Source: Psammoneis japonica (Eukaryota). Taken from it: DNA of 64,000 nucleotides. Each line of letters opens with the position of its first letter. Positions within the stretch are counted from its first letter, which is position 1. Shown in pieces: positions 973 to 64,000 of this stretch. Made by a program: the position numbers and the translations under genes. The notes below the pieces were generated by a model, which saw nothing but the letters and a program-made list of their open reading frames with translations, was not told the origin of the DNA and ran no database searches. The stretch spans positions 1 through 64,000 of the forward strand of contig QPGO01000227.1 in NCBI GenBank assembly GCA_008632985.1. Direction: 5' to 3'.

Positions 973-1632
973 TTAAACAGATCACAACTATGAACAAATT
1001 TGCTGATGCTCTGAACAACTGTCATTTACGAAGCTGTGCTTCGATTGACTCTGTTGACAAACACATCCGCCGAACCCTGACTGTGCCGGTGAAATCAAAT
1101 CCCAAGCAATCATGTGTTGTGTTGCGTCGTGCGCATGTGTTGCGTTGCCTTGTTGTTTGTTGTTGTTGTTTCGGGTTGTCCTTCGGCGCCGTTTGTCAGA
1201 TGCAGCTGACATGGTCTTTTGACAACACTGCACACACAATGCAAACCTGCAATTGCAAGAACCATTCAATGCGTTCATGCAAACCCAAGCTGCCTTTCTT
1301 TGTCCAAGACTTGTTCCAGACTCAGGTGGCGCGCACTTGCCCCTTTTTCGCACCCTGTCAGAATTTTTATGCACCATCCAATTTGAAAAAAATAAATGTT
1401 AAATCTACTGTCAAAATATTTTTATATTTAAATTCCGTCTCGTAGGTCAATGTGACTGTTGCATGTCAGCGTGCGAGTGTGTGGGAAACACGCGGAGGGA
1501 TGCAACCTTGTAGTTTGCTCCTCGCCTCACAAAGCAGCTGCACAACTTTCTTTTTTGCAAATCGTTGAATCAGTCCAAAGGCTTGTGCTTCAGACACGGA
1601 CACAAAAGAGCATGTGGGCAACAAACGAACAC

Positions 1633-4600
1633 ATGCCTCGCTGCAAAGGCATTGGCCGCAATCACAAATCAGGCACTGGGCGGAACCAGCAGGCCTCAAG
1701 CCGTGAAGTTTCTTCTGTTTCATCCTTGAGGAATGCATCCACTTTGGCTGCTGGCTGCAGTGGAGATGTCGCCTCTATGAATTGCGAACATCGTGTCTCG
1801 TCTACAGCAGAGGGTGCAACCTTTGCCGAAGTTGCAGTTGGTGCTACCGTCGCTCCCGACCAAAACCAAAACAGAGACGACAGTTTGAATGTACAAGAAT
1901 CTGCCGGTGCACCATCTGATCCAGCCGATGCCACGGGAAACATCTCCATTGTCCCCCCACGGGAGAGCGCCACAAAGCATCTTTCATCACACAAAAGAAA
2001 GCGGGAGAGCGCCACCAAGCGTCTTTCATCATACAAAAGAAAGAAAATTGAGAAGGCAGAAATAGTCGAAGCTGGAACGACCCACCCATTTGCATTCACT
2101 AAGGGAGGCAAACAAAGAAGCAAAGCCGCTGCTGAGAAGGCTCGGAGAAAAGAAATTTGGAAGCTTCTTGACATAGTGCAAAACCTTGACTCAGAAGAGC
2201 AGCGGGTTTCCGTAGTTCAAGGTTTCCTAGAGCACCGCGAAATGACGTCAGTTTCAAAATCGATAGGGTACTATCTTGAGGAGGAACGGCAAGCAGCAGT
2301 ATTATCGTACAATCAGCAACAGAAAATGATAGCGCGAGCCATTGAAACAGACAAACAACGAGGCCGTCCCGACGATGACCGAAGCAATTTCGTTGACAAC
2401 CTGTTGACGGCATCCCAAGCGTCCCCTGACAAAGCACCTGCGCCAAAGAAACTGTTCAGTGGCTCTGGCATGTCCTCCAAGACGCTCAACCGTCGAATGA
2501 TGAAAGCCAAGGAGAAACGTAAAGATTTGATAGCCAAGGCCAAAGGGGTGCGATGGTCTACAGGGCGTAAGCGGAAAAGGTGGCAGAAAATTTCGACGGA
2601 GATTGAAGACAAGCTGGAGAATTGGATACGAAAACACGAGCTAGTAGTTAACTCTCCCATCACTAGCGACACACTCCTGGTGAAAAATCGAAAAACGGGA
2701 AAGAAGGAGAGAAAAGGTAAGTTGCTTTTGCCGGTGTCGGTACGAGAACTCCACAACAGCTTGATCCTACCTGAATCTGCGGGCGGGCTGAAAGAAGCCC
2801 GCAAGGAGGATGGCACGGTATTAATAAGCGACACGATGCTTCGTTCTCTCCTAAAAAAGCTGACGCCAGAGCTTCGAAAAATGACTGAGCGACACAAGCA
2901 AATGTGCGGTTGCGAGGCATGCATTGTGACTGGAACCCTACTCCGTGATCTGTATGCATACAGGTCAAGAGCTGCGACCAGAATGAAAAATAGCATTGCC
3001 GGCCTTCCCAGCAATGAGAAGTCCGCAGCGGAGAGGAAGTTGCATGAATACACAAGTTTAATATACACTCCCGACGGTGAACCCAAGTACAGGCGACCCG
3101 CGGATGCCACCAAGCTGTTGCAGTGTGCAAATGTTGGTGAGCTCGGTCATCCTCGATGGGAATGTGTGTTGCGTCGATGCAAGCATTGTCCAAAGTACCT
3201 TCCACCTGAACCCGAGCGATCCGAAGTATCTAGTGCGACAACAGATATATCGTTCCACACCTATGCACCCCACACAAGATGTTCTGAGCATGGCATTCTC
3301 CCCCTGAACTCCGAGAAATGCGACCGGTGTGAGGCCCCGGCTAACAAAGAAAAGAAGGGGAAAGTACGAACGAGGAAGCTGCTTACCCTTTACAAAAAGC
3401 CAATAGGAGTATTCCACAAGGATTATTTGAAACCGGCGCTCGAAAAGATGGCGTACCACTGGCCACATGTGACGATGCTGGGAAAGAATCATTGCGGCAA
3501 GCTTCGAAAGGAGACATTCGCTCGAATGGTAACGGACCTATACACACACCGAGACTATGCAGAGCGACTGACTGAAGCAATGAATAACAAGATTCAGTCG
3601 GAACACTTCGGACAGAACAGGGACTTGTCGATGGAGGGATGCTCACTGGAATTCTTTTCTGATGAAATAGTAAAGAGATATCGCGAGACGGGGGAACTGC
3701 CCACGGTCGAGGATAGCACGATGGAGTTCCATTCGCATCTTTCTGATAACTCAAAGCAAAATGCAAAGTACACTCACGCGCACATGTGTGAGATGTTGAA
3801 TTACTTGCGAAACAGAGGCATTGTATTGTTGAACAACACCTTGTGGGACAACACTGATGGATGCTTGTGCCAGTATCGATCCGCTCTTGCCATGTACTGC
3901 CTTTCCGTCCTAGCAGTCAAATACCAGATAGTCATCAATCGAGCCATTGGCGCCCCAGGTCATGGCAAGGACCTAGTCGATGGTTTGAATGCCACAGACA
4001 AGCGCTTCTTGCAAGACCTGTTCAAAATTCCATCAACACCAGCGGACATTAATGACGAAAGAAAGATGGAGCCGCACTCAATGACAGGGGACGAAGACAA
4101 TAGCTTGGCAAAGGTTGCCGCCGAAGCCTTGAGCAATCCATCAAGGATCTCTGGTGTAAAGGGAGATAAGAAACACGCGAAGCGTGAGAGTGAAGCTAAA
4201 ATGGACAAGAGAGAGTACCACGTGCAAAACCCAGATGATGTGCTTCACAAAGGATTGGACAAAAAGGCAATTGGATACGAGAAGGGGAGCCGCAATGGGC
4301 TCATGTCGCATCACAACGTACAGGCGGACCACAATCTTGGCGTGGGTCGGGTTGCAAACCGGCGTATCCCCTGCGGATGCAAACCTTGCATGACGCAGCT
4401 TAAGTTGCCTTGGCAGCCAGGTGTCAAGCCTGAAGAGCAACAACGCTATGCTCCCTCGACTGATTGCGTGTATCGTGACATATTTGGATCATTTAATGAC
4501 TGGCGGATCATAACATTGGTGGACAGAAATGAGCGAGATAAGGATGATGACGAAGAAGTGTACGAATCTGTACTTGCCGGTATGACTGAGACAATGTATG

Positions 4601-5145
4601 ACAAAATCCAAGCTGGTGGATTTGGAGCTGTGTCCACAGAAGATCCTGAAGCAGATGGGCATTATTTGATGAAATGGAAGAATGGGCCATACACTCTACA
4701 AGATGACGTAACCCTGTCCGAGTCCAACCATTTCAAGAGAGGCGATCAAGTTGTCGAAGGTACATACTTGACCAAAGTGCCGAGAGCAAAAGGCTGGTAC
4801 ACAAAGGCACCTGAAGAAAGTGAGGAAGAGCAAACAACCTTGGTTAGAGTTCAGCATGTGGTTGCAGGGGCGATTGAGCTGTCTCCCGAGAGTGATTCAT
4901 TAGAGCTTCCACGGACATGCGACAAAACGGCAGCACGAAGACTCGGCCCACTCCACATAAGTCAAAATGATCACAACATAATTGTAGACCAGATTTCCCT
5001 CCGAGAATTCCTTGATTATGAAGAGAACAGAACGACGAGTTCTACAGATGGGGAGGGCGCTGATTGGGAAGGTGACAACGACGATGAAGACTTCGATGAC
5101 GTTAGCGATGAAGACAGTGAGGAGGAGCCACATGAGTGCTACTAA
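1633..5145 (+). CDS. Sola2-like DDD transposase
   Basis: Motifs DYAERL..KIQSEHF, HLSDNSKQ, WDNTDGCLCQYRS and APGHGKDLVDGLNA match the Sola2 pattern (DFAENY/QSxHW/SDGxxxQYK/HGKGxxDG). It has Cys/His clusters and an acidic tail. ATG at 1633 is chosen as the likely start, although the ORF is open from 1459. Confidence 0.8.
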   Translation: MPRCKGIGRNHKSGTGRNQQASSREVSSVSSLRNASTLAAGCSGDVASMNCEHRVSSTAEGATFAEVAVGATVAPDQNQNRDDSLNVQESAGAPSDPADATGNISIVPPRESATKHLSSHKRKRESATKRLSSYKRKKIEKAEIVEAGTTHPFAFTKGGKQRSKAAAEKARRKEIWKLLDIVQNLDSEEQRVSVVQGFLEHREMTSVSKSIGYYLEEERQAAVLSYNQQQKMIARAIETDKQRGRPDDDRSNFVDNLLTASQASPDKAPAPKKLFSGSGMSSKTLNRRMMKAKEKRKDLIAKAKGVRWSTGRKRKRWQKISTEIEDKLENWIRKHELVVNSPITSDTLLVKNRKTGKKERKGKLLLPVSVRELHNSLILPESAGGLKEARKEDGTVLISDTMLRSLLKKLTPELRKMTERHKQMCGCEACIVTGTLLRDLYAYRSRAATRMKNSIAGLPSNEKSAAERKLHEYTSLIYTPDGEPKYRRPADATKLLQCANVGELGHPRWECVLRRCKHCPKYLPPEPERSEVSSATTDISFHTYAPHTRCSEHGILPLNSEKCDRCEAPANKEKKGKVRTRKLLTLYKKPIGVFHKDYLKPALEKMAYHWPHVTMLGKNHCGKLRKETFARMVTDLYTHRDYAERLTEAMNNKIQSEHFGQNRDLSMEGCSLEFFSDEIVKRYRETGELPTVEDSTMEFHSHLSDNSKQNAKYTHAHMCEMLNYLRNRGIVLLNNTLWDNTDGCLCQYRSALAMYCLSVLAVKYQIVINRAIGAPGHGKDLVDGLNATDKRFLQDLFKIPSTPADINDERKMEPHSMTGDEDNSLAKVAAEALSNPSRISGVKGDKKHAKRESEAKMDKREYHVQNPDDVLHKGLDKKAIGYEKGSRNGLMSHHNVQADHNLGVGRVANRRIPCGCKPCMTQLKLPWQPGVKPEEQQRYAPSTDCVYRDIFGSFNDWRIITLVDRNERDKDDDEEVYESVLAGMTETMYDKIQAGGFGAVSTEDPEADGHYLMKWKNGPYTLQDDVTLSESNHFKRGDQVVEGTYLTKVPRAKGWYTKAPEESEEEQTTLVRVQHVVAGAIELSPESDSLELPRTCDKTAARRLGPLHISQNDHNIIVDQISLREFLDYEENRTTSSTDGEGADWEGDNDDEDFDDVSDEDSEEEPHECY

Positions 5146-5330
5146 ATTAGACATGTGTAACATCTGCTCTACCACTTGAGAATGGCATTCAGGATGTTTG
5201 CACTAAGCGGACTACCAAAGCAGGTGACATATTACGACAGAAATGCACAGGTTAGGATTGGAAATGTCAAAGCAAAAACGGCTCATATGGCACATGGCCT
5301 ACCTTTGTATGCCCCAATTAACACCCAAAT

Positions 5331-5983
5331 AACATAAACGCTCCGTCTGGTTGCTAATAGTAACAAAGAACCCCCACTGCAAGCTACTCCTGACGTATAC
5401 GGGACGGTTGATCTACCGTCTACCTTCTGCAGACGGGAAGGTAGAAGTCACTCCGAATCGGAAAATAGGCATCACCAAGTCAACAAGAAAGCTCAAATCG
5501 ACGTCCAACTAACATAAACGCTCCGTCTGGTTGCTAATAGTAACAAAGAGCGCCAACTGCAAGCCACTCTTGACGTATTCGGGACGCTTCATCTACAGCG
5601 CACGGGGCGGCGGGACCAGAGAACACGTGGTATCGCGACAGATGTGGGGTTTAGAAGTAAAAATTATGGTGCAGTAACCCCTCAAGCAGAACAGAGCTTA
5701 CCTATGAATGGGAATAGAGCCACAGAGACCCGAATGAAGGCTCTTATTGTTGTTCCCGACGTCGATCTACCGCCTACCTTCTGCAGACGGGAAGGTAGAA
5801 GTCACTCCGAATCGGAAAATAGGCATCACCAAGTCAACAAGAAAGCTCAAATCGACGTCCAACTAACATAAACGCTCCGTCTGGTTGCTAATAGTAACAA
5901 AGAGCGCCAACTGCAAGCCACTCTTGACGTATTCGGAACGCTTCATCTACAGCGCACGGGGCGGCGGGACCAGAGAACACGTG
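5331..5983. repeat. Internal direct repeats in the 3' region of the Sola2-like element
   Basis: aacataaacgctccgtctggttgctaatagtaacaaaga occurs at 5331, 5511 and 5866. A block of about 220 bp is duplicated at about 5410 and 5764. Confidence 0.9.
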
Positions 5984-8900
5984 ACTTGGCGACAGCAACA
6001 GAGGGTGAGAAGGGAAGAAGGAGATTGTGACGTACTGCCTTTTCCACTTTCAGAGACACGGTTCCTTGCCTGGTATGGAAATACAAGAAATGAAAGGCGT
6101 CGCTGTCAGAATAGGAACTGCTTGCCGAACGAGTGTCATGGCCTTTCGTCCTCCGTTTTGGCGCCTGTTTGTACTGCTGTTTTTACTGTACAATACCTGT
6201 GGATGAATCCCCATACAGTCGTTGTCGCTCATTTGTCCGTTGAATGATGTTGCCCAACAGTGAAATCTCTACTATATTTGTAATAATTCTTTTCTATATA
6301 GTAATTTATGTACCTTTTGTGAAATTATATGAATATCTGATTGAGCTGAAATTTTTATGTATGTTATTCAAGACCCAATAAAGATTTAAAAATTTCGTTG
6401 AATCCGATGAAAAATTCGATCGCTTATCTTTTACGGTACCATTTCACGTCCAAAAACTGAATCTATCAACAGAAACGACGATATGGGTACACGCACGAGA
6501 CCTTCCTGTATGTACCCATACCATCACATTTGAAAATCATAGTGTTACATCGTTCGAAAATGGCACCGCAAGTTTGGACTGCGCGTTTCATGCGAAAAGG
6601 GGCATTTTTTCGCGCGTGAGCGCACCTGAGTCTGGAACAAGTCCCAACCTTGTAACTGCTTGATCCAAAAACAACATCACACTTTTCGCCACAGCACTTT
6701 GCAGGGAACAGTGGGTTGGTTTTGAAGTGCGCTTGAGCAAAACATTTTCCGTCATCTTGATGGACCAAGGCATGGAACAAGTGGGCCTCCTCGCACTTGC
6801 GCTGAAAACACAAACAAACAAACACAATTGGTTTGCGTGCGTGAACAAGACAACACAACAACAGGCATGCCAAATCAACAATGACGTTTGCTCTGTGCCT
6901 GCGAATTGCAAGCAGTTGTTTGATCCACTTGAGCCACAACGAGTGTTGCAGTTTTGTGTGTGCGTTTGTCATTTGCTGTCTTTGTCTTTGTTGCAAACAA
7001 ACAACAAAGTGAGAGGTGATGTTTCCAAGATGCTGCGCACAATCCGCACGACTTCATCATGCATTCTCTCTGCTTTGTTTTGCAATGGATTTAACAATGG
7101 TTTAGAGTGGTTGGCTGGTTGAGTCTGCAAAAGAAATGCCATCATGACACACATTGAATGCCGTTAGATCAACTTCTCAATGGCAATCCGGAGCACCAAC
7201 AATGCTCTCACCTCTTCATTTGCACCATATGCCATTGTCTCTTTGACCTTTCTCATTGCAAACAACAATGGCTGTGTGAGACGTGTCCGATGAATTGCAC
7301 AATTGGCTGCAAGACAATGTGATCTTGCCGTCTTCTGTGGTGCTCTCTCTGGCATTTCAGCAACTGGGGATGGTTGAGTCTGGCATCCAGCAATGATGCC
7401 CCAAAGTGGTTGGAGCAATTGTTTCATTTGCAACTGGAGCACTGACATTGCTCTCACCTTTTCATCATTGCCACTGTCAACCACCTCATTTGCCTGGTCA
7501 CAAAGAACAGCAGGAGCAGTGTGATTGGTCAATCCAATCCATGTGTCGCGCTCTGCCTCAGAACTCTGTTCACTCACTTGTTTTTTTTGTGCTCGCTCCA
7601 GTGTTTCAACTGTCTGGGATGGTTTGGTGTGGCATCCAGCAACCCAATGAGGCCAAAGAGCTGTTAGAGCAACAGTCCAAATTGACAGCTGGAACACCGA
7701 CAATGCTCTCACCTTTTCTTTTGCACCAGTTGGCTCGTCCATCTCATCAACCTTTTGCATGAAGAACAGTGGTGTGAGCGACGTGCAATTCAGCCGCATG
7801 ACACAATGCATTTTTCTTGCCGCTGGAGCGTTCCCGGGCTCTTGTTCCGTCCTGCAACAAGGGGACCCAGACAACTGTGTCTGACAAGCCAAACAAGGCA
7901 TCAAAGCGGAAGTTGGTTAGAGCCATCCAACACCACAGCAATTGGACCACCAAATCATGTGGTCACCTGTGACACCATTTCTGCCAACTCTTCGTCATTG
8001 GAATTCCAACCATCGATGACATCCAAATCCATGGTGAGGGGTTCTAGTTCATCATTGCGCTCCCGACGAGGAATTTGCTCTGCCTCCTTCTCCTTCTCGG
8101 TTAACTTCCGCTTTGCCGTTGGTTCGGATGGGCAATTTAGCGCGGTGTCCATGGTCAGTGTTGACACCTGAGTTTCGGACTCATGTTGCGGATCAAGCAC
8201 AATCTCTTCGTTGACCATTTGGGATGAACTGGTGACTGTCATGCTGCCACGAATCGACTGGAGCAAATCTTCCTTGGACAGCGGAACTCCCATTTGTTCT
8301 GACAACATGCTTGCTGTTTTCGCAAGGTCCACAAGGGATGCAATGTCAATGTCTTTGCTGGATGCTCCCTGAGCAACTTGTTTTGATGCTTCGGTGTTCT
8401 CCTCCTGCTGTCAAGGACCGGAAATGGGAACAAAGTCGTCAACCAAACAAGATTGTCAACAAAAGGACAAACAAACAATGTGCGACTAACTCACCGCCAC
8501 TGGTTTCATCGACACGACGTAAAACTTTGCTTTGGTTGTTGTTTCCGCATTGGTTGCAGCGGGGACGGCCACACATGTTTTACCTCCATTCTCCTTGTTG
8601 CTCTTGTGCATTGCAGTTGCCACACACCAGCCTGCTTTCCGCAGCATAAACTCCACAAACGTTTTAATCATTTGACATTTGGCTTGGCGTGCCACCACAG
8701 CAAACCCGCCTCTGTCATCGCGACACATTTTGCGAGGTTTGCTGGAAGCGTCCGTGGCATGCGGCATGAGCTTCATGTTGTTTGCGGTGAACCATTTGTC
8801 AATGGCAGCAGCCAGCCATCCTCTGTTGCGATGAAAGGCGTGGAAAACTTGATGCACGAGCTGCTGATTCTCGGCTGTGCTGTCCATGCTTGCCAGAATG

Positions 8901-10127
8901 TTTTTGAAGTCTTCTGTTGTGACGGGATTGGTGTTTGTTGATGGCATTGCCACTTCCTTGTCCATTGCATTTTTCCGACAGCCCTCCAGGCATTGAGTCA
9001 TGACGTGTTGTCGAAGGGACGACCGGATTTGTGCCACCTCTTGTGGCATCTTCTTGCCATTGGGCGGCACCGTCTCCACCTCACCAAGTTGTGGACGTGC
9101 CTTTTGGTGTGACCACAAAAGAGCAGCATCCTCTGGTCTTGTGGGGTTGGCCCCTGTCGTCGGATGGAAAAAGTCTCTTGGACAATCCAATGGACGATTG
9201 GGTGCTGTCATTTTTTCCCCTGGATTTGTTGCAGAAGCTTCCCACTGCATGTCAGATCACAATGTTAGCTTCCAAATGCACACTTCGATTTCAAATGCAC
9301 CCACCTGTGTTCCCCGCCATTGCAACATCTGTCCTTGACGGGGTTGTGTTTCCCTCTGTTGAAGTGTTTGCCCTCGATGTGTTTGTAAGATCAAGGCTGA
9401 CGACCGACACCTGTGTCTGATGAAATGAATTCGTCATTGTGTTTTCGACTTCTAATCGCTTTTTACACTTGTGGATGGTCCGGGACGAGCCGAATCTGTT
9501 TGACACAATTGCAAAGTCACGGTTGCATGTTCTCATTGCACGGTTTTTGAACTGTGTTCAGTTTTGTTCTTTTCTGCATTTTTCATTGTTTCAATCAAGC
9601 ATTGTTGTTCTGAAATGAACATTGACAACCATGTCGACCTGTGTGTCAAGAAGATTGTTCTTTCCTCCCATTTGAAACAAAATTTTCCTCAAACAAAAAT
9701 TGGGTTCTCATTGGTTCACTTTTGAATGTGTGATTTTCCACAATTGAAGTTTGATTTTTCATGTGTGTTCTTTTTTAAAGTGCTCGCTTCATCTACGTTG
9801 TTGAATGAAATGCATTGTGCAATCACACGATTGGGTGGGAGTGCACGCGCGCGTGCGTGCTGCTCTTTCAGCATGTGGAACATGTGTGGGGCCCTGCGCA
9901 CAGGGCTTGTCTGCAAATGCGCAGTGCAGCAGAATGCACGTGTTTTGCGCTTTTGGTGATTGAGAGCACATGCGTTGCTCCACCTCATTTTCACAAATCC
10001 TCTGCGCTGCGTAAGCCCATCAACAGAACTGCGATCCCTCCCCTCTTTTCCATCCAATCATCTTTTGGGACTCTTCTTGAATCTTGCATCTTGCTCTTTT
10101 GTGCATTGAACAATCCCAAACGACGCC

Positions 10128-11500
10128 ATGGACGACATGGCAAACAATTGGGGGTGCAATTTGGTTGCCGTTAGCCCGCGTGGCTTAAAACGCAATGGCG
10201 AAGATTTGATGAATTCTTCCATGGACATCGGCCACCACAAGCAGTTAGAAGAAGTTGTTTTTCGTCACTTTGATGGTGAATTGCTGCTGTACAAAGTGAT
10301 GCCAAACGGCTCCGATGCAAATTTGTTTGCAGTTGATTCTGTGACGGGAGGGCACAACGACGGATGTTTGATTGCATGTGGAAGTTATGTGGCCGGTGAT
10401 CATGGGCCCATCCACTGTTGGACCACCAGCACGTTCAGTGCAGAACATGGTCCGAGCGCGGCAATGCACCCGGACGACGTGTTCAACTCTTTTACACGCA
10501 ATCACACCATTGCGCTGCCGCATCACATGCCAGGCACTCTGAGCTCCGCGGAGCTCAGTGAGTGCGAAAATGATTGTCTCAACCACATTCATCTCCGTTG
10601 TTTGATGCAGGCTGTAAAGAAGGTGCCAATCACTGCATTGTTTTTAGAATTGATGCTGGCAAACAATGGCGCAACACTCAGCGACAACTTTCTAGAATCT
10701 CTCGGTCGGTTGGCTCACCACCATTCCTTTGAGATTGTTGTTGACGAAATTGTGACAGGCGGGCGCAGTGGATGCATGCTGTCATGCCTGGCTAAACCCA
10801 AGCATTTTGTTGATGCTGTTGCCTGTGTTGCCATGGGCAAATGGCTGCAAGCTGGCACCGTTTTAGCAAAACCCGATCATTGCAATCGGTTTTGCAGCAT
10901 GACATCATCTCTTCCCAATCGTGGCACCTCCACGGGCATGGATTGTAAACAAATTGTCATGACATGGAAGACTGCAACTTCACAGTTTTGTCTCACAGCC
11001 GAGCGTCGACAAACTGTCCTAAAGAAACTCAAAGTGACAGAGCAAGATGCGTGGGGCAGCGGCTTGCTTGTGTTTGCTCCTGTGAAACGAAGTGATCTGA
11101 CGCCAGCGACCAAGAATCATTTCCTTCCTTTGCTTTGCGCCACCCCATTGGACAACGTGAAAGTCCAAAAGCACGATCAGTGGACAAAGCCTCTTGTGAG
11201 CCAATGCATCATTGATGGATGCCGCTGTTGGTTAAACGCACACCCGCACACGGACGAGGAAATGAATGGCATGTGTGGGTTGCTCAGTCATTTTGCGGAT
11301 CAACCCGCGGGCACGTGTTTTCAAACTAAGGGGCTCATGATGAATGTCCTTGGTGGGAAGCCTCGCACACTGCCGCAAACGTGCCAACTGTTGCGTGCTG
11401 CAGAAAAGGCCGGGCTTGTTGGCAAACATTGGTGACTCGCAAACGCCTGCATGCCTGGAAATCGTTGGCCCCGACAACCATGCCAAGCAAGAAGAATTAA
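10128..11500 (+). pseudogene. Class-III PLP-dependent aminotransferase-like protein with short C-terminal extension (cargo gene B, hypermutated, 1-nt frameshift near 11425)
   Basis: Class-III motifs appear in order: NGSDANLFA, GSYVAG, ALFLELMLANNG, IVVDEIVTGGRSG and MGKWLQAG (putative Schiff-base Lys). The duplicated copy at 11766 onward supplies the in-frame tail GKTLVTRKRLHAWKSLAPTTMPSKK. Confidence 0.78.
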
Positions 11501-12152
11501 CCCACAATTGCATTGTCTTGCCGCTTGCATTTGCGCAACCTTGTTTGGACAGCCTTCGGCATTTCGAAAAAAACTGCTTCCTCCACTGCTGATTTTGGAT
11601 CTTCTGCCAGTGCATCCATTTCAAATGCATCATTCCCCAAACACCAATTCAACCACTGAATGTCTTTTGCCGGAAGAGCGAATTCATGATTGGAGTCGAA
11701 GATCCAACCACCATGCAAAGCAATGCAGTGATTGTTTGTCAACCGACAAAGAACAATGTCATCGGCAACTGTTGCGTGCTGCAGAAAAGGCCGGGCTTGT
11801 TGGCAAAACATTGGTGACTCGCAAACGCCTGCATGCCTGGAAATCGTTGGCCCCGACAACCATGCCAAGCAAGAAGAGTTGACCCACAATTGCACTGTCT
11901 TGCCGCTTGCGTTTGCGCAACCTTGTTTGGACAGCCTTCGGCATTTCGAAAAAAAAACTGCTTCCTCCACTGCTGATTTTGGATCTTCTGCCAGTGCATC
12001 CATTTCAAATGCATCATTCCCCAAACACCAATTCAACCACTGAATGTCTTTTGCCGGAAGAGCGAATTCATGATTGGAGTCGAAGATCCAACCACCATGC
12101 AAAGCAATGCAGTGATTGTTTGTCAACCAACAAAGAACGATGTCATCGGCAA
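11385..12152. repeat. Tandem duplication, about 381-bp unit x2
   Basis: caactgttgcgtgctgcagaaaaggccggg... starts at about 11386 and again at 11766. Both units end in tgtcatcggcaa. Confidence 0.92.
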
Positions 12153-53009: not shown

Positions 53010-55549
53010 ATCTGTCGAGTTATGTAGTTGTCTTATGCATCAGGCTACCAGCGTCCACACCAGCAAAATTGAACTAGATTAGGGCTAAAATTTGTCCCCC
53101 ACTCACAAACAATTGCATACAGCTGTGTTTGATCTGCATTACGTTGGCCGGTTTTTAGTGTACCGCGAATAATAATCACGAAGATGTCTACACAAAAGAT
53201 GCTCTAGACATCAACTTTGCCAGCACGTGCACAAGCTGTGAAAATCATCAGTCCTAACTTGATTTAAGGTGGCCATTTATGATGTGCCAAGCACGTTCGA
53301 AAGAGCATCGCATGAAAACGCGATGTCACGCGACTAGCAGCATTGCCCACTGGTCTTGTCACGTGTTTGGGAAAATGCATGCTGGCATGCAATGTGCATT
53401 TGTGCTGGGCAGGTGCAGCATGCGCAAAAGTTTTGGGGGGACAGCAACCATTTTTGTTCTTGTCTGATCCTTTGTCCACCAGGAGAGCATCAAGCACATC
53501 TGCGTGCAGTTCTCCATGCATTTTGTTGGTCCTCATGCTGGTCCTGATGGTTGCATGTGCTCATTGCATGCTGGCCATTTCAACTGGATCTATTGCAGTG
53601 GATTGGTTGCACAACAGGCACCAAGGATTTTCACCATGCAGCCATCAAGCAGTGCCATTGAGCCAGCCTCCAGAACTGGCCACCATAAGTGGATGTCAAT
53701 GAGTTCCATCTCATGAAGCATGCTCAGCTCTTAATTTCTTTTGGGGTTGCAGTCAGAGGATGTTGCAATGATTTGTGGGATTTGGCATGTCTTGTGAAGA
53801 ACTTTGGTGCAGCAAGGCAGTTCCATCATCTCAAGGACCTTGATGACAGGAATGCATTCATGGACACATCAACAAGGGAGTGTGGACTTGCCCACCTGGG
53901 GGAATCTTGCAAGGGGTCTCATTTTGTGTGACAGCATTTGGGAAAACCCATGCAGATGTTGCTGCAAAGAAATGCTTTGTGCACAGATGGTGGCATTTGT
54001 TCCAGTTGATTGGAAAGGAGAACATTCCCAGCATCAAGCAATGTGGCCATTGTGTTTGAGAGCCAATCAACTGTTGTTCTTTTGCAAACGGTGGCATTGA
54101 AAATGGGCTGCCAGCTGCAAAGGATTTGTGCCAATCTCCCTCTTTTGTTTTTTTTTGTTTTTGGACACAAGCCATTGTCAAGCAATGATGCTCCAGCTGT
54201 GGTGGTGAATGTTGCTTGCTCCAGTTTTGAAACTTGTTGATGTCACACTGTGATGCAATTTCACAATGTCAGATCCATTCCACCCCAAAGGGATGATGTC
54301 ACCATTGCAATGTCACAATTTGTGACCTGGCCTGTCTGTGCTAAACTCTGAAATGGGCATTTGTGCTGTCTCACATTGTGCATTTTCTGTCTTGGCTTGG
54401 CTGCACAACAACTGGCAACAGTGCACTGTTTTGCTGTTCATTGGACCATCCTGTTGTCCCCGCTTCTGTCAAATTTGTCACTGTTGGATGTTGCGCCAGC
54501 CACCATTCCTGCAATCTCACGCTTCTGTCTTTTGTTTCTTCTGGAGATGCCCCCGCTCTGCAAGTGTTGGTCACTGCAAGCAATGCAATGTGTCACCCCA
54601 CAGCACCCGTTGCTTTTTGCATTGCACATGCAACCTGCTCATGCAACCTGCTCTGTGGCAATTCTCCATCCTTTTGGTTCTTGTGACATGGACACCTTTT
54701 TTGTGTGGCACATCACAATGCAGTGTGTCATGTTTTGGGCACAATGCACCACTTGTGGTCCAGCAGCGGCCATTGACGGTGTCACCGTGGCCACTCCCCA
54801 TGCCTGACATTGTCAAAGCAGCTCCTGCTCACTCTGTTGCAGAGTTTGCATCTTTTGCACCACTGCTGCAGCCCCTCCCTGTGCCTTGATGTGGGTTGAC
54901 AGTGCATTGCCGCAGCCCCCAACTCTGTGATTTGTGTCGTGCTCTGCAGCAGACTTCATTTTCCATGATTTTTGAATTTGCCACTTTGTTGTTTTTTTGC
55001 GAGCACATCCACCATCGCTGTTGGTTGTTGTGTCCTTTGCAGAGTGTCAGGCTTGCCATGACCAGCAAAATGCCAACAATCCACAAGCACTGGCTTTTGG
55101 GGGCAGCTGAACCCTGTTGTCCAGAGATTTTGGGTCACAGCACATTGAGTGGCACACCCCCTTCCTTGGAGGCACCACTTTCAGTCTTGCCGGGGAGCAA
55201 CCCCTTGGCTCTTGCAAGCCATCTTACAGAAAAAAAATTGCCAAGGCGCCGCTGCAGTCAGCTGCCTTGGCACAGTTGTTGGCTTGCTTGCAATTGTCAG
55301 AGATGAGAGCAACCTCATCTGCCCTTCATGTCGTGACTTTTCCAAAAGTGCTGGATTGTGGATTAAAAGGAAAAAATGCTCTTCACCCTTGGACCACTCC
55401 AAATGGAATTGAATGTTGGCATCTGCTTGAGCCGCTCAGTTGTTGCACTCTGTTGCTGCTGGATTCCTCACACAATCTGCACTTGCTGTTCAACACAATC
55501 ATCTCTCCCATGCTTGCAGACTTGCCTTGGGTTGTTTGATTTCTTGTCT

Positions 55550-57035
55550 TGTGTTGACTGCGTCTCCACTTGCCTTGAAATCAAAAGAACAACTGTCATT
55601 GTTGGCATCACACAGCCAATGCACTGGCTCCTGACTGGGACGTGGTGCACAAAATTTTTTGACACTGAAAATTTTTCCAGGTCCTTCAGATGTGGAACAA
55701 GTCAACACAGTTGTGAACATGCAGTGGGTTGAAGGTCACCAGGACAATGACAGCCCGTGCAAGTCCTTGCCTCTCCCGGCACAATTGAACGTCCATGCTG
55801 ACCGGCTGGCAAGCACGTTTCAAGGCCAACACAATGGTGACACCCCACTTGTGCCTTGTCTCATTTCAAGGCCAACACAACGGTGACACCCCACTTGTGC
55901 CTTGTCTTCCCAACTGTTCCACAATGATGATTGCACAAGAAGCATCTGTGACTTCAAGAAATTCAAATCAGTGCTTTGCTGTGAAGCATCCAGTCCGGCC
56001 TTGACAGAACACATGAAGGAAAAGTGCGGGTGGACTGATGCGGTGTGCTCTTCAATGGACTGGCAAGTTCATTCCAAATTGATGTCCAGAAAGATCCGGC
56101 GTAAGCTGAGCACAGTGAAACTTGTGAAAGATCCATTGCCGATCAACAAGATTGTCCACTGCTGCAACCCGACTTGTCCTGACTGTTGCACAAACTGCCA
56201 ACATCTGCTCAAAGACACAGATCACATTTTGCATTGCAAACATGATGAGTCTTGGTGGCGTTTCTCCATGGCTTGCAGAAAAAGTGTGATGACACACACA
56301 TTGCCGTCACTCTGGGATCTGTTGCTGCATGCTCTCAAGGGTTGGTTTCATGATGAGTTGCTGCATTCTGCGAACCTCCATTGGAGCACTGTGTTGGTGT
56401 TTCAAGCTCAAGATGAAATTGGTTGGAGACAGATTTTCAATGGGCGTTTCTCGTTGTTGTGCAACAAAGCTCAAGCATTGCACTTGTCGTCAACTGGTTT
56501 GTTGGTTTGCATCACTCCTTGCTGGATGCGGATGGGTGCTCAGATTGGGCCACTGCAATTGGTGGTTTTGTGTGGTGTCAATGGTGGGAACTCTGGGACA
56601 GCCATGATGACGCTGCACATGGGCACAATTCAGAAACAAGAAAGTCCTCACAGCACCGTGACACTGAGGCAGAAGTGCAAGCCATCTGTTCCAAGGCAGA
56701 TGACTGTTTTTGACTTGTGATTGATCCAAGTTGCTTGATTCAGTGGAGGAGCATCTCACTCATTCAACCCACAGATTGCGCAATTGGTTGGCTGTGGTTC
56801 GGCCAATGTTCAAGTCCAGCATCCGCAAAGCCCGGCGTCTGGCAGTGAGGGGCACTTGCACCATTGCAAGTTGTTTTGGCATGGCATCACCTCAGGGTGA
56901 TGCTGATTCAGGCCAGTTGTTGCATGCTTGTGCTGCACCTGGTGCACTGGGAGTGTGGGTTGGCTTGTTGCCCTGGAGTTGCAGGGTGGAAGCACAGCAG
57001 CACTTAAAATTAGAGACTTTGGGTTTTGTTTTGGT
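55550..57035 (+). mobile_element. LINE 3' fragment (RNase H end, CCHC knuckle, 3' tail)
   Basis: Motifs WVEGHQD...AQLNVHADRLA, CTNC..LKDTDHILHC and QDEIGWRQIFNGRFS. The tail is homologous to 31790-32660. The 5' limit is uncertain and may extend to about 54.4 kb. Confidence 0.78.
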
Positions 57036-58699
57036 TCCTCACAGAATCACAAGAAATCACGCACTCCCACGGGTGCTCTCATGACGTGATTTCCATGTGA
57101 TTCCAGTGATTTTGCACGGCTGCTGTGTGATTGCTTGACAGGGACCCCCCACAAGTCTGCATGTTGTCCATGCTGCTTCTGCTCTGTGACAAACACGCTG
57201 CATTTTTTCATCACAAAAACATCAAACCAACAATGAACATTGCAAAGGCCCCACATGGCTTCTCATCACTGGCTTTCTGGCTGGGTTGTGGTGCGCATGG
57301 ATGGACAGTGACCTCATGCTGATGCTGAAGGCACTGCAACGTGGTGGCTTTCCAGGACTCCATGAGGATGACATGTCATCTGCTCTCCGAGTTGCCTCAA
57401 ATTCACTTGCCCTCCAATCAGATGACTGCCAAGGCAAGTGCCAATGTGCTGTTGCTCTGACACAGGTGAAGTGCTCCAGCACCATTGCTGTGAAGCACAG
57501 GAGTTTGAAGGGTGTCTTCATCAAAGAGTCAGGAGCAAATGTTTCCTGAGAAACACGAGGGAAAAGGACGGCATGGCAGCAGTGGAGACCATTCGGACAT
57601 TGTCAGAAGCTGGCTGCTTGCACAAGGAGAACAATGGCAATGCTGCTCCCTGTGCTTCTGGCAATTTGGAAATGCAGCAAAGTGACTCAGAATCCAAGAC
57701 TGTTGATGATGGTGGATGCAAAGAATGGGGCAAGAAATTGGTCGACAATGATTGGTTGATTGATTTTGCAAATGAGCTGCAGCAGCATGCTTGAGAGCGG
57801 TTTCTCTGTGGGGAGTTGCTTGAGCATGGAAAGAACTGCAAACACATGATTTTAAGACACCAATGTGATGCTTTGCAGAGCATTGCCAATTGTCAATGAT
57901 CGGAATCAAGGCATCTGCGAAAATGCAACACACACACAACTGGCGACTGGCGTGTTGGGTGTTTCTCTCCATGCAGGAGTTGCTCGAGCACTGCAGCAAC
58001 CACTGCCATGGCACAAGACACCAACACAATGCTTTGCAGAGCATTTCCATTAGATGCAACCTAGAATCAAGAGTCACAGAATTAAAATCTAGAATCTAGA
58101 GTGATGACAAGTGGCTGCACATGAGTGCTCTCTGGCAAAAACAGCAGTGTGTCCAGTTGCAGTTGTCCCATTTCTGTCCATGTTTGAAAACCTTCTGCTG
58201 TTGATCCTTTTGATCAAACCTCACCAATGGGAGCAAAACAAATGATTTGTGGGAAAGTGTCAACAGCCGAAGAGTTGCAATGACCAAACAAACGTTTGCA
58301 AGATGCAAGACGTTGACGCAACAGCCACAACAAGCAAAGAACATTGACATTTTGCGACTTGCTCCTGGCACCAAAACTCTCGTTGTCTTCCATGCCAGCT
58401 CCACACATCATGCACCGGGATTGCATGCTTCTTTTTGTCAACTTTTTATTTCATTTGGCTGGGCTCAGACGAGTTTGGTGCATCGTTGCTTGGCAACGGT
58501 GACATTCAGAACCACGATTGTTGTTGTCGAAAAACACTTTCACCTGGCGATCCTTTTCACCAAACCTCGGAAACATGACAGCCAGAACAAGGTTGGCATG
58601 CAACACACTGAAACGGAAATTGTCGCGGTGACAACACGAGAAGGGTTGCGTTTCACTCGCAAAAAATGCTCCATCGGATGGTCGCACAGACTTGCAAAA

Positions 58700-61600
58700 T
58701 TCGACAACCACGCCACAACCAAGTAAATCTAGCTGCCGGACAGGCTCAGCCACTCACAGTCTCAGTGCGACAGTGCGAACACAACCAATGAGATGCTTCT
58801 GGGCCTGTTGCAACTGCAATGGATGCAACAAGTGAAGACCCATTTCGCGGTCATCGGCGTCACTGTCTGCATGCCACGTCATGGTTTCTCCACAGCACCT
58901 CCTAGAGCACACTGGGCAGTCCCTGATGCACTGGATTTCATTTGGTCCCCTCGAAATGTGCCTGACTCGTAAGACACAACTCGATCCTGTGCTGTGTCAG
59001 AGGTCCAACTCAAACAATCTTGACTCATCGATCGACGTAAAACGCCAACCCTCCATGCGTGGTGCAAACCCTCACTGGGGAAGAAACTCACCACCGCTCC
59101 ATGCATCCATCTCAATGCGTGAACTTGTCTAACAGAAAATTCCGTCTGACAGACGACATGACCTTTGTGAACAGATTGCTCAGGTTTGTCTCTGTTCCCT
59201 CCTTTGCAATCCTGACAGTCCCCGCAGCAACGGCCTTGCGGTTGCGGTGATGCACAATGGAGTGATGCTTCTTCTTGAGTGTGGACTCAGGAATGGAGCA
59301 ATTCTTGTAGACGGCCTCATTGTCACAGAAGACATTTGTTGGCCCTTTGATCGGCACCCCAAACATTCGAAGCTTGTGTCACAGACCCTCCATGAGCTCG
59401 ATGGCATTCTTGAGTGCAACGATCTCAGCCCCAAATGTGCTAGCCTCCATGGTGTTCTGATGCTTCGAGTGCCACACAATGGGTGCCCGATCAACAAACA
59501 TCAAGATGCCTGCATGGCTGTGACGATCGGCAACATTTCCGGCATGGTTGGCATCCACAAAACAATGTGTCGACACCACGTTGCCTCAAGCTGGCGGTGC
59601 ATTTGTCGGAATGGCTTCTCTTGCATCTCGGCAGAAGTCATGCCAGTCGCATTTCACGAATCGCGATTCATCGATCTTGGGATGAGCCGGATCAAATGCC
59701 ACTTGGCGCTTTGGAACCTGTTTGAGGCATGCAAAGACATGATGCGAGGAAGAGCGAGGTGAGCAGACATTGACGAAACCTCCAAATGGATGTCCACTCC
59801 ACCGAGTTCCACAGCCCAAACCAGCACGCCAGTCAGCTCTTGACAGCAGTGAAGTCCCTCAGCGTCCAATTCGCCAGCAGTGTCTAACTCGGGTTTGCAT
59901 CCACTGCTCAATGGGGTTGTCGCCTTGCTGGGCAGACGTTTCCCCTCCTCACTGAGCTTGTCCTCTACATTTTGGACAGCAGCCTTGCAGCACTTCTCCG
60001 CAGACATTGCCCAACAGGTGGTCCCATCGGCTAAAGTCATCTTGGAAAGCGCGGCACCGAGATGAGAATCCGGTTCGGCTGCCTCATCACCCTTGAGCTT
60101 GAACTTGGACCTGATGCCATCCATCGTCTTCATGGGTTCGTGACCAATCAACAGCACGTCGTCCACATAAACTAGAACGCATTTGCATTGCTCGAATCCA
60201 TCGGGTTTCACCGCAGGTTGCATCCATGCATCCGGATCAGCCTTGCTCGGTTTGCACCCTGGATCATGAAGCGTCTCCGCTGGAAATGCCCTGAATGCTG
60301 CTCTGGAGCTCTTCAATCTGTGTGGGGCTCTGACCACAATCATGATGCAACCTTCATCCTCGCCAAACTCGGAACCTGCTCTGGTCCAAATCTTCTCCCT
60401 GCAAGGGGCAGCAAGGCAGGCGTTCTGGGTGTCACATGCAAAGACTTGCAAGTCATTGAGCGCGGCAAGCATCAGTGCAATCCTTGCCAAATCCCAAGAG
60501 ACGACAGAGGAGCAGGTGATGTGTGCGGGGGGTTCAGCAGTGTGGCCTCCAGCCACCGTGCGAGCTTCACAGCGGAAGTTTTCTCCCAATTTGATGTCAA
60601 AAATCACACCACACTTCACTTCCTGGAAACCAGGCATCATGCCCTTAAGTTCCCCTTCATGCTCATCAAAAGCAACCCACACATTCTTCATCTCCATGCA
60701 AATGGCGTCCCACCACAGGGTGTTGCCATTTGCGCGATTGATCTGGATCACCTCCTTGACACTCTTTGGGATCCGCACGCCAAACTTGTGTGTCCGAAGC
60801 CAATGTTTCGACTTGACCTTCGCAATGGAATGCTTGCGGGTTTTCATGACATGAGGGACCCACCAAGCAAACGCTGCCTCATTTGAGATCTTGTGCTGAA
60901 TGGCAAACTCAGCAACTTGGACTGGGAAGCTCTCCTTCACAATCTTCAAGTCGATCCAAGTTGTGCTTCCATCCTTCCATTGGAATGGGAGTTCCCATCC
61001 TTTGGCAGTCTTGCGCCTCTTCCGAACGCCTTGCTCGGTCTCAAAGAGCTCGGATTCAGGAACGTCCCCATTGGTGCGGCAATCAACGATCTCGTCAAAT
61101 GAGACATGCCGGTTTCCGTCCTTGTTGATCTGAGCAAACACATTCATGGCGATGGAGTTAGCAGAGAGCGCAGCATGGTGCCCATCAGGGCACTCTACCT
61201 CATGCATCCTTGCATCAAGGATGGGATTGTCATTGGCTGTTCCTGTTGGAACACCACTGGCATCTCTCAGCCTCTTTGTGACATGAGCAAACTCAGGACC
61301 ATTGTCATCTCTTGGAAGCGCAACTTCCATGTCAAGGCACCCCCAGTCTGCCGCCTCCGGTGAGGCTTCCTCGTCTTTCTTGTCGTCATCATCATTTGCC
61401 ACCTCCTCTGAGGACACGACACGATCATGCTCATCGAGGAATTCATCGTCACATTCAAGGCAGTCTTTCCAGTCTTTGGGACTGATCTTACAATCCTCGT
61501 CATCAGGGAAGTCTTGCTCCTTCAACCGGTGCTTGATCTCCTCGTCAAAACTGTCAAACTTTGCCTTTTTCTCTTGAGTGGCGGCTTCTAAATTGGTGAC

Positions 61601-64000
61601 TCGTTGAACGGAAGTTCTCGAAATAACGCTGCCTGTCTGTGTCAGAACACAGTGCGACATGAGACTCCCTGTTCCATGAGATGCACCAAGCCACCTGCCG
61701 AGCTTCTCGTCCCCTGGACCGGCATTCTCCCTGCACCAGACCCAATCATAAAATCCAAAGTCAAGGCACTCCGAGATGTCCACGGTCTCTCCGAGAATGT
61801 TCTCCAGTGGCACTCCAGCATCCAAATGATGTGCTCTAAGGAATGTGCGAGACATGGTCTCACATGTCCACGTAAATCCGCAGTCCCACAGTGCCGCGGT
61901 GCTTGCTTCTTGACCACGATGCGGAACCACTTGCGTCTGACCTCGCGTACAACCCCTTCTGCAGGGTTCTGGTTGTGTCGATCGGGTTCGATGATGTGAC
62001 AATCTATGCCCTCCTTGCGCACGGTCTTCATGAACTCCATGCCAGGTTTTGTTTGCTCCTTAGATCCATCCATCAGGAGTTTCTCTGGCACGCCAAATTC
62101 CTGGCAAAACATTTTGAGAGCTTCGCCAGCCTCACTCTTTTTGTCCATGGGATAAATCGCAGCAAAGCATTGCTTGTTTGTTAAGATCTGAGCATGTCAA
62201 TTGCCCTCCAGCAAAATCACCTTGCCATCAACCATGTTGGTTGCCCATTCACCCCGTAACCCAGGCTTTGTGAACATCCAATTGGCCCGATGGCGTTGAC
62301 CCATTGGCATCAATGCTGACCTGATGAGCTTTTGCACAGTCTTCTTGAGTGCACTTGCTGCTTGCTTGAGTCCTGTGCACCATCGTTCACTCAAGTCAGC
62401 AGCCGATGCATCACCATGTCTCTCCTTAGACATGAATGTCTTTGGGAGTGCCAAGTCTTCAGGTCCTTTGCCAATTGTTTCCGTGGTGGAGATCTGGACT
62501 GTTGACTCCGATTCCACGTTGACGGCAGCCATGAGCCTTGATTGGACTTGATCGACTCCACAAATGAATCGCTCATTGCAACAGTCCCTGGATTGAGGGT
62601 CACTGCAGGCAGGATCAGCTTTGAACTCGTGTGTCAGATTGGCATGGATCGTCGCAATTGACCGAACTAGCTCCATTTCCTCCTCCGCAGATCGTCGAGT
62701 TCCAATGGATTTGAACTTGACGGTCTGTGGATCCCAAGGTTGTTGGGAGGTCATCTGGATCTTGGGGCATTCGTGCAATTCCTGCTCTGCAGGAGTGCGA
62801 GTTGCCACAACAACATTGGTCCCCACAGCTTCAAGTGGCATCATGAAAGATCTGTCCTCTGCAAGGACACACAGTGGCAAATCAGAGCAGGGGTTGTCCT
62901 GAACCTTAACACCAAAGTGCTGCAGCTGGTTTGGGCCAACCAGCGAGTGCTCCATGGAATCCGGCATCCACAAGCCCTCGTGGAAGACCAGAACAAATGT
63001 TGCTCCCGATGTCGGTGACGTCCACGCCGTGGCTGCCGAGACAATTGGGACACTCTTGATGGAATTGCATCCCTCGTTAAAAGGCGATGCATCACATTCT
63101 CGTCCAGAATGACCTGAGAGGGTAAAGTTTTGACCAAAAACAGTGGTGTCAGCATGCGAACCCATTTCAAGGCGTCCATGCTGTGCCTTGCTCATGTCAC
63201 GGATGTGAGTGATTCGTGTGGTGTCAGACCGCGTTGCCGAGACACGCCGTGTCGAGGTGACAACCTCACAGACGCGTTTGTCACAGCCACGTGGGTGCTG
63301 CTCCTTTGATCGATGCGGCTGTCCCCTGCCCCATTGCAGCAACCACAACAAGAAGTTTGTGATGCAACAGAGCAGGGTCCAGCTTGGCAGTCATTTGTTC
63401 TTTCCTCTGTGCTTTTCACTGCGACCACCGAATGCGTCTCCGGCATTGTCTCTGTCTTTGCCGCCAGCCCTTGATTCATCATCGCCAGAATCGGCGCTGG
63501 CATTGGTGTTCAGGGCAGAGATTTTGCAGTTTGCTTCTTGCGACTTGACGGATGCAGCACAGCGTTTGGTTGGTTTGGGTTGTTTGGCAACACCCAGACG
63601 CACGCGCTTGTCGACAACCTTCTGTTTGTCCTCCTCACTCAACTGGTGCCAATTTTTGTGGTGTCCAGTGTCAATGGATCCATCCTCATCATAGATGGCA
63701 CCACCCTCTCTTCCGCCTCCACAGGTGACTGCGGCAATCGCATGACGATGCGCAATCGTCTCTGGAAGGGTGGCAACTTTTGCAGCAAGATGATTGGCCG
63801 CCGTGGTGAACATGATGCCTCCTCCAAACTCATTCTGTGCCTTCAAGGTCTCAACTGCCGCTTGCAGTGATTGGTGCTGCGTCTTCTCAAAAAGCATCCA
63901 TGATTTCTGGGCCTCCGTTTTTGGTTCGTTGTTCTCCTCAAAAATGTCAAACATTTCTTGAAGCTTGTTGACAAACAACTCAAACGGCACAGCGCGTTCA
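58700..64000 (-). mobile_element. Ty1/Copia (CoDi-like) LTR retrotransposon, decayed, running off the window end
   Basis: Domain order is gag-PR-IN-RT-RNase H. The candidate PPT TTTCGAGGGGA is near 58950. LTR limits are approximate. Confidence 0.9.
59112..63990 (-). pseudogene. Copia gag-pol polyprotein (frameshifted, hypermutated)
   Basis: Protease LEMGSHADT (normally LDSHADT). Integrase MDGSKEQ and HNQNPAEG. RT RTHKFG and LVYVDD. RNase H VDANHAG, STFGAE, FCDNEAV and KKHHSI. Confidence 0.92.

Follow-up and report, generated by a model that had tools for sequence, protein, structure and literature searches.

A saturated signature of TpA-to-TpG/CpA hypermutation in transposon-rich DNA of Psammoneis japonica

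Fungal repeat-induced point mutation (RIP) denotes a dense, transition-only and dinucleotide-specific mutation of mobile DNA: C is changed to T at CpA (or another CpN), which makes TpA dinucleotides and stop codons. RIP is triggered by sequence duplication, depends on RID/DIM-2 homologues (DNA methyltransferases) and is premeiotic. Until a preprint of 2026, no natural process in eukaryotes was known that mutates TpA specifically toward G:C, and that preprint, as far as its main text goes, concerns one species, Bigelowiella natans, and viral inserts that are mildly depleted in TpA (Mettrop et al., bioRxiv 10.64898/2026.01.13.699255). Here we describe the first 64,000 nucleotides of contig QPGO01000227.1 of Psammoneis japonica (assembly GCA_008632985.1; the whole stretch is called the window below), which presents an apparent end state: transposon DNA from which about 90% of the expected TA is missing, beside untouched genes. 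We read the window as a saturated, transposon-wide case of the kind of TpA hypermutation described in 2026. The process itself, a localised conversion of TpA to TpG or CpA acting in place on transposon-rich blocks, we hold to be probable at about 0.82, a figure that applies to the process and not to an enzyme.

Of the 302 nuclear point mutations recorded in mutation-accumulation lines of B. natans, 231 lay in an integrated giant-virus region and a virophage region, and with a single exception (230 of 231) these were A>G or T>C changes located at TpA (Mettrop et al., bioRxiv 10.64898/2026.01.13.699255). According to the main text of the preprint, the rate was about 6e-7 per site per generation and was seen only in some lines, the de novo rate being episodic and raised roughly 1000-fold. 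The same source reports 124 clusters of TpA-poor, CpA- and TpG-rich windows in 95 Mb, as well as an enrichment of transposon domains among TpA-poor coding sequences, and proposes an ADAT2-like DNA adenine deaminase. The sequence-only reading that preceded our analysis knew of no described eukaryotic system of this type; that statement no longer holds, the same spectrum having been measured in B. natans. Our literature search returned no prior report besides this preprint and nothing on diatoms. Flanking context is not mentioned in the preprint's main text, and its per-site supplements may contain it.

The window resembles B. natans, as described in that main text, both in the change itself (A>G or T>C at TpA only, with TpG or CpA as the outcome depending on strand) and in its layout, in which foreign or mobile DNA forms discrete blocks, with TpA loss and CpA/TpG gain, next to host DNA that is normal. 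Forty of the 64 1-kb windows pass the thresholds of Mettrop et al., in runs of up to 13. There are also differences. Viral inserts in B. natans are mildly depleted (rho 0.45), whereas depletion is here near saturation, with an observed/expected ratio (o/e) of 0.10, and covers about three quarters of the 64 kb; the affected DNA includes Copia, miniature inverted-repeat transposable elements (MITEs) and other element DNA; CpG decay and a rule on the base following the TpA are found in addition; and a rate was measured there, while here the process is known from its fossil signature alone. We infer that both represent the same kind of process.

Over the whole window, o/e is 0.22 for TpA, 1.51 for TG and 1.50 for CA, with CpG at 0.68. 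We pooled the depleted blocks (6601-38900, 39400-41000, 43201-47200 and 53401-64000; 48,501 bp) and the host islands (13,800 bp). TpA o/e is 0.10 in the former (307 TA, 6.3 per kb) and 0.62 in the latter (570 TA, 41.3 per kb), TG and CA reach 1.62 in depleted blocks versus 1.12 in host islands, and GC content is 0.497 versus 0.484. At the scale of 1-kb bins, TpA o/e is 0.02-0.27 across approximately 7-41, 43-47 and 53-64 kb, while the gene islands range from 0.46 to 0.89. Depleted DNA ends sharply, within 100-500 bp, as judged from the jumps between successive TA positions (6546 to 6653, 40660 to 41131, 43154 to 43300 and 53335 to 53591) and from the complete lack of TA between 46800 and 47223. 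The blocks and islands are the following:

6547-41130, no strand: main TpA-depleted block; TpA o/e 0.04-0.27 in 1-kb bins, except for a patch at 39022-39354
43155-47222, no strand: TpA-depleted block of about 4 kb; TpA o/e 0.02-0.24, CpG 0.20-0.56
53336-64000, no strand: TpA-depleted block reaching the window end, with a Copia element; TpA o/e 0.02-0.16
990-2000, no strand: partly TA-poor stretch beside the intact MITE copy A; o/e 0.22
41131-43154, minus strand: spared host island with a DUF6824-domain gene (ORF, or open reading frame, 41747-43036)
47223-53335, no strand: spared host island with a TPR gene, a dual-specificity phosphatase and an ORF of 417 amino acids (aa)

The sequence-only reading had placed the scarcity of TpA at about 6.6-38.9, 43.2-47.2 and 53.3-64 kb, with TA-rich gene islands. 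The pooled values confirm this contrast and the listed ranges stand, but the extent was incomplete: 39.4-41.1 kb is also depleted, and 1.0-2.0 kb partly so.

The polarity of the net change, from TA to TG or CA, is established, because conserved tyrosines have been lost, MITE copies differ by location, and Copia relatives are TA-normal. The protein evidence relies on long ORFs that remain open in depleted DNA:

59657-62059, minus strand: Copia pol ORF, open, 801 aa, with a weak RVT_2 match
20844-24143, minus strand: open ORF of 1100 aa, Cys-rich, of an element-like family with 8 relatives at 31-48% identity
11500-15210, minus strand: ORF, open over 1237 aa, within depleted DNA; 0.6% Tyr, 4.2% Cys, 4.2% His

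For the Copia ORF, 11,965 relatives reach E<=0.001, and the best of them is 44% identical. The Tyr content of the ORF is 0.2%, versus 3.0-4.8% in the 25 relatives used for comparison. Fourteen columns carry Tyr in at least 70% of these relatives; the Copia ORF has Tyr at 2 of them, Cys at 7, His at 3, Gln at 1 and Phe at 1, with codons TGY, CAY and CAA at the lost positions, and keeps 162 of 209 other conserved columns. The 1100-aa ORF behaves alike: at 13 conserved-Tyr columns it has Tyr at 2, Cys at 5, His at 5 and Phe at 1, and 327 of its 387 other conserved columns are kept (Fisher p=1.6e-7 against the Tyr columns). Taken together, the two ORFs have Cys or His at 20 of 27 conserved-Tyr columns (20 of the 23 lost). 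Tyr>Cys, a sense A>G change, accounts for 12 outcomes and Tyr>His/Gln, a T>C change, for 9, with no clear bias related to the transcribed strand; the Cys and His outcomes appear interspersed along both ORFs and are too few for a formal test of strand tracts. More generally, 11 ORFs from depleted DNA have a Tyr share of 0-0.6%, compared with 2.0-4.4% for 5 ORFs of the host. Copia-like loci from metagenomes (n=80) have a median rho TpA of 0.68, and 79 of the 80 lie above 0.43.

These columns bear out the claim of the sequence-only reading that conserved Tyr codons are systematically replaced by Cys or His, and together with the TA-bearing MITE copy A described below they support the direction that it assigned, TpA to TpG/CpA. 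The Copia strings that it quoted (SKHW, ITCSS, NACL and APHRLK) are all present at 60311-60811 on the minus strand. Its kinase string, PEIC, does occur at 26161-26172 on the minus strand, but in a fragment that is kinase-like and has no Pfam match at E<=0.001.

Repeated DNA within the window provides an independent view of the same change. A MITE family of about 390 bp with long terminal inverted repeats has five copies here, with 4-bp flanking duplications that vary (TTAA, TTCC, AATC, AAAG, CCTT). Its word depth in the public sequencing run X1 reaches about 52,000, versus about 59 for single-copy DNA, and it therefore has many hundreds of copies. The copies, and a tandem array that lends itself to the same comparison, are:

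583-974, plus strand: MITE copy A, in a gene island, taken as the unmutated reference; 31 TA in the aligned 421 bp (570-990)
29073-29471, plus strand: MITE copy B, in depleted DNA; 8 TA
34264-34684, plus strand: MITE copy C, in depleted DNA; 8 TA
30237-30639, minus strand: MITE copy D, in depleted DNA; 6 TA
43926-44323, minus strand: MITE copy E, in depleted DNA; 4 TA
15316-16273, plus strand: tandem array of a 281-bp unit; units differ mostly by TG versus CA at the same dinucleotide

Eleven TA sites of copy A are well aligned; in copies B to E, the corresponding 44 cells contain TG (19), CA (17) or TA (8) and nothing else. Both TG and CA are found at 7 of the 11 sites, a pattern that requires a TA ancestor; the converse case was seen once only. 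Differences between copies C and D comprise 13 CA/TG pairs, 7 involving TA and 10 involving CG on one side, 3 other transitions and 6 transversions. The array units (15411-16253) show 28 site differences over three pairwise, non-independent comparisons: TG versus CA at 14, CG versus TG or CA at 8, other transitions at 4 and transversions at 2. Because only about 40% of CpG has been lost, opposite double hits at CpG should be much less frequent than single hits, and most TG/CA pairs of the array thus descend from TA. The occurrence of TG versus CA between units therefore implies mutation after duplication, in place, near saturation and on either strand alike. Judged from these copies, the change happened in place and on both strands.

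The DNA pairs quoted in the sequence-only reading could be located in the window, and its observation that paired copies differ at TG/CA sites agrees with the MITE and array comparisons. One of these pairs had been taken for long terminal repeats: the copies (38628-38813 and 39038-39223) form a duplication with a spacing of 410 bp, and their reading as long terminal repeats is not supported. They belong to a high-copy repeat at 38628-39354, whose word depth goes up to about 11,000; several TA of one duplicate unit correspond to CA or TG in the other, and a small TA-bearing patch, 39022-39354, lies there inside depleted DNA.

The spectrum can also be followed through the steps from pyrimidine (Y) to purine (R). 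The number of N-YR-N steps per kb is equal in host and depleted DNA for every flank pair; within the YR steps of depleted DNA, the shares of TA and CG are down and those of TG and CA are up. A constant YR count with a changed partition is what is expected for transitions alone. We then measured TA survival in each context over two baselines, namely the host islands and 75 TA-normal Copia loci (370 kb). Survival over both is lowest in ATAC/GTAT (0.008-0.009) and ATAT (0.011-0.017), is 0.26-0.32 in CTAG and 0.44-0.55 in TTAA, and amounts to 0.045 in GTAC over the Copia baseline. A model in which the A of each strand is hit independently and multiplicatively, the following base determining the rate, reaches an R2 of 0.92-0.93 on the two baselines. 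The fitted hazards are 2.2-2.4 for T, 1.55-1.6 for C, 0.55-0.61 for G and 0.24-0.36 for A, so that T-A-T and T-A-C are mutated about 4-9 times more than T-A-A, the bases after the A ranking T > C > G > A. Where Y stands on both sides (Y-TA-Y), it is mainly TG that gains (summed +0.65, versus +0.33 for CA), and the rule therefore sits on the T-A-Y strand, or on R-T-A if T is the modified base. All four surviving Tyr codons of the Copia and 1100-aa ORFs follow a T, as the model predicts. This flanking-base rule is new relative to the earlier report of TpA hypermutation, and the excess of T-A-T and T-A-C far above T-A-G and T-A-A offers a testable rule that any candidate enzyme must reproduce.

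CpG is lost from the same blocks. Its o/e is 0.59 in depleted blocks and 1.01 in host islands, and CG/TG and CG/CA differences separate the copies, in line with the sequence-only reading, for which CpG loss to TpG/CpA fed the same sink. TpA and CpG o/e are correlated, with a Spearman coefficient of 0.72 for the 64 bins and of 0.54 when the 49 depleted ones are taken by themselves, which is consistent with the possibility that both processes mark silenced, methylated DNA. Deamination of 5-methylcytosine shares the TG/CA sink and the blocks, but it cannot remove TpA: CpG decay co-occurs and leaves the loss of TpA unexplained. The two are moreover separable, because one metagenome locus, L041, has lost TpA without CpG loss. 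It carries a full-length Copia element (about 1000-6000) with an ORF of 1404 aa and 0.4% Tyr, in which TpA o/e is 0.04-0.40 and CpG 0.74-1.06. Its 20 conserved-Tyr columns hold Cys (9), His (7), Tyr (2), Ala (1) and Met (1), while 264 of 330 other conserved columns are kept; five control loci have Tyr at 16-19 of these 20 columns (18 being aligned in one control). The TA that survive in L041 suggest T-A-C as the strongest context there, on small numbers.

The same scar is present in at least four of the 150 best Copia protein relatives (P0070, P0103, P0104 and P0116). P0070 has kept Tyr at none of 12 conserved columns, and at columns shared with the Copia ORF of the window the outcomes of the four sometimes differ. 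These entries, which have next to no Tyr and carry Cys or His at conserved-Tyr columns, are hypermutated Copia pol copies that were called as genes. Since 1 of 80 metagenome loci and several public proteins carry the scar, the process is probably not confined to one genome.

By the genetic code, the process would turn Tyr codons into Cys or His codons and TAA or TAG into TGA, CAA, TGG or CAG, and would never create a new in-frame stop. TAA and TAG are in fact nearly gone from depleted DNA, where TGA is the sole stop left. The long, Tyr-free, Cys/His-rich ORFs (801, 1100 and 1237 aa) are explained in this manner, because the process erases stops and makes none. The likeness to fungal RIP lies in dense, transition-only and dinucleotide-specific mutation of mobile DNA, in sharp borders and in the divergence of copies. 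In contrast to RIP, TpA is here destroyed, GC is slightly up and no stop can arise; the sequence-only reading was right that the change runs opposite to RIP, with TpA lost and ORFs of 801-1237 aa still open. In practice, gene finders will call mutated elements as long Tyr-free, Cys/His-rich 'proteins'.

We propose the following process. A:T>G:C transitions only would convert TpA to TpG or CpA; the target would be the genomic DNA of transposon-rich, probably silenced blocks, with adjacent host genes left alone; either strand would be hit independently, with T-A-Y preferred; and targeting would depend on chromatin or locus state, not on copy number. As to chemistry, a TadA/ADAT2-like enzyme may deaminate adenine in DNA, yielding inosine. 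We give adenine deamination about even odds and rank it ahead of thymine modification. The tRNA adenosine deaminases TadA and ADAT2-3 act on an A that follows U or T, with A>G as the outcome, and laboratory adenine base editors are DNA-acting derivatives. The natural tRNA substrate of these enzymes likewise has U before the edited A, and amphioxus ADAT2 is a DNA-acting relative, both points as given in the main text of Mettrop et al. (bioRxiv 10.64898/2026.01.13.699255). The distance from TadA and ADAT2-3 is that they are not known to act naturally and genome-wide on the DNA of chromatin blocks. An enzyme of such specificity would be of interest for base-editing work.

Other chemistries and other modes of targeting need to be weighed against this proposal. 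The thymine of TpA could itself be modified, for instance by TET/JBP-type oxidation to 5-hydroxymethyluracil (5hmU) or 5-formyluracil, and pair with G, giving T>C with 5'-R-T-A-3' as the motif. Oxidised thymines do mispair, and 5hmU is found at TpA in dinoflagellates; A>G on one strand cannot be separated by sequence from T>C on the other, and nothing within the window contradicts a modified thymine. We nevertheless consider it rather unlikely, as the UpA rule of TadA/ADAT provides deamination with a ready explanation of the motif, an argument made in the main text of Mettrop et al. Targeting could instead be repeat-induced as in RIP, duplicates being sensed by homology and then mutated. Most of the depleted DNA is transposon-derived and parts of it are at very high word depth, as this explanation would have it. 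However, MITE copy A belongs to a family with a depth of about 52,000 and keeps its 31 TA in a gene island, although it is short and may be young; 45.3-47.2 and 53.3-54.0 kb are single-copy at 90% likeness or more, although heavy mutation could itself hide copies; and the main target in B. natans is a single-copy viral insert, according to the main text of Mettrop et al. Repeat-induced targeting seems unlikely, and the 'repeat-restricted' and 'RIP-like' framing of the sequence-only reading is not supported, a high-copy MITE being spared in a gene island and some depleted DNA being at single-copy depth. These same two observations favour targeting by locus or chromatin state, and both have other explanations.

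A very improbable alternative is that ADAR-like enzymes hyperedited the RNA of the elements (A to I) and that reverse transcription followed by reinsertion fixed the changes. The targets do include a Copia retroelement, but MITEs, which have no RNA intermediate, and adjacent tandem units were mutated in place; sense T>C changes (9) are about as common as A>G (12); and TAG belongs to the contexts that are affected least, whereas a G following the edited A is what ADARs prefer. They also favour U before it, as cited in the main text of Mettrop et al., which speaks for hyperediting. Deaminase-driven editing of retroelements by ADAR or APOBEC does produce clustered transitions in mobile elements, but it is strand-biased and acts on RNA or cDNA in the retrotransposition cycle, whereas DNA transposons and tandem units are here hit symmetrically and in place. 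That base-calling, polishing or assembly produced an artefact at a modified base is scarcely credible. In run X1, 45304-54297 is covered by one contig of 8,994 bp that departs from the window at 3 letters (the sample may be the same, and the platform is not on record), and its word depth of 59 is alike over depleted and normal parts; depleted DNA at 45.3-47.2 and 53.3-54.0 kb is at single-copy depth in this run at 90% likeness or more. The X1 contigs, whose reads may share the source sample, argue against a consensus artefact without amounting to a two-platform test. In addition, any given site is consistently either TG or CA, CG does not arise, and the same signature occurs in the unrelated metagenome contig L041 and in public protein predictions. 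Equally hard to credit is a native composition or a selective avoidance of TA without hypermutation: mild under-representation of TpA is common, and the host islands themselves are at 0.62, but conserved Tyr is replaced while other conserved residues stay, same-lineage Copia loci are TA-normal (79 of 80 with rho TpA above 0.43) and MITE copies differ by location. GC-biased gene conversion was rejected, AA/TT (1.25) and AT (0.92) not being depleted.

Several points weigh against localised TpA hypermutation, or against its attribution to an adenine deaminase, and lower our confidence accordingly. The platform independence of run X1 is not established, and X1 may be the source sample. The ancestral states rest on protein relatives and a few repeat copies of one window; the context baselines only approximate the ancestral composition, and some surviving TA may be newly made. 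The losses of TpA and CpG correlate, which makes a link to methylated chromatin possible but unproven. The window's sequence does not favour adenine over thymine as the modified base, and no deaminase or dioxygenase domain was found by the Pfam scan among the 230 different ORFs that it covered. Finally, the evidence is a fossil signature and not a present-day mutation rate.

A wider proposal, which we put forward tentatively and at clearly less than even odds, is that of a chromatin-guided DNA adenine deaminase with a 5'-T-A-Y-3' motif, serving as a genome-defence mutator in a second, intron-poor eukaryotic lineage that is unrelated to chlorarachniophytes, and saturating all classes of mobile DNA. 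Were this true, TpA hypermutation would be RIP's counterpart, old and widespread, and could be recognised in contigs from the environment, L041 among them; elements would be disabled through the loss of Tyr codons, TATA-like signals and stop codons, without stops being created. Five host ORFs of the window (204-1229 aa) run uninterrupted, apparently without introns, and two host proteins have no match in a protein collection that draws on public genome sources. Both features suggest an organism other than B. natans, which is intron-rich and present in public protein sets. The DUF6824 gene, on whose domain the literature search returned no paper, may hint at stramenopiles.

Most of the depleted DNA is derived from transposons, namely the Copia element, the MITEs and a multi-copy ORF family, and transposons of several classes are targets. 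The blocks also hold tandem arrays. The family of the 1100-aa ORF is probably an undescribed transposon protein family. Its relatives are 626-1268 aa long and cover up to 100% of the ORF; one of them stands for 204 member sequences, on a 1-Mb contig, and one has weak Tudor matches under Pfam's own cut-offs. The family has no assigned Pfam family, and a profile search of the PDB was negative. The 1237-aa ORF had neither family nor relatives in the searches made, and viral contigs contain no relatives of these two large ORFs (20844-24143 and 11500-15210). The Pfam scan found no family in the 43.2-47.2 and 53.3-59.6 kb blocks; elsewhere in depleted DNA it returned weak fragments of Aminotran_3 (class III), ARM, Exo_endo_phos, Fer2 and GH47 (E 9e-11). 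The fragments that resemble host genes may represent pseudogenes or captured pieces, and single-copy pseudogenes, if that is what they are, would argue against repeat-restricted targeting. The fragments are listed here with the genes of the islands:

10110-11432: aminotransferase fragment, in depleted DNA
24599-25570: ARM repeat fragment, in depleted DNA
26092-26355: kinase-like fragment, in depleted DNA
31907-32380: ferredoxin fragment, in depleted DNA
33833-34345: GH47 fragment, in depleted DNA
1456-5142: ORF of 1229 aa, in the gene island at the window start
47526-49361, plus strand: TPR gene, in a spared island
50106-50717, minus strand: dual-specificity phosphatase, in a spared island
51756-53006, plus strand: ORF of 417 aa, in a spared island

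Run X2, for which the kind of library is not recorded, shows depth at 15 of the 30 bins, with its long pieces on gene islands, and we draw no inference on expression from it; run X3 yielded no piece on the window. TpA o/e takes intermediate values (0.5-0.6) in the 1229-aa ORF, where TG reaches as much as 1.5, and the neighbouring TA-poor stretch at 990-2000 encloses a TA-rich patch of 75 bp (1368-1443, 9 TA). This pattern over 990-5142 may reflect a process leaking into the gene, or a mosaic of sequences of different age. The assembly has one N at position 32222, in a depleted block. Lastly, the 4-kb depleted block has at each edge one copy of a 40-nt direct repeat (43143-43182 and 47150-47189, 78% alike), adjoining the starts of both flanking host genes. 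The repeat carries ACGTCA/TGACGT motifs and could be a scar of insertion or duplication, or a pair of shared promoter elements.

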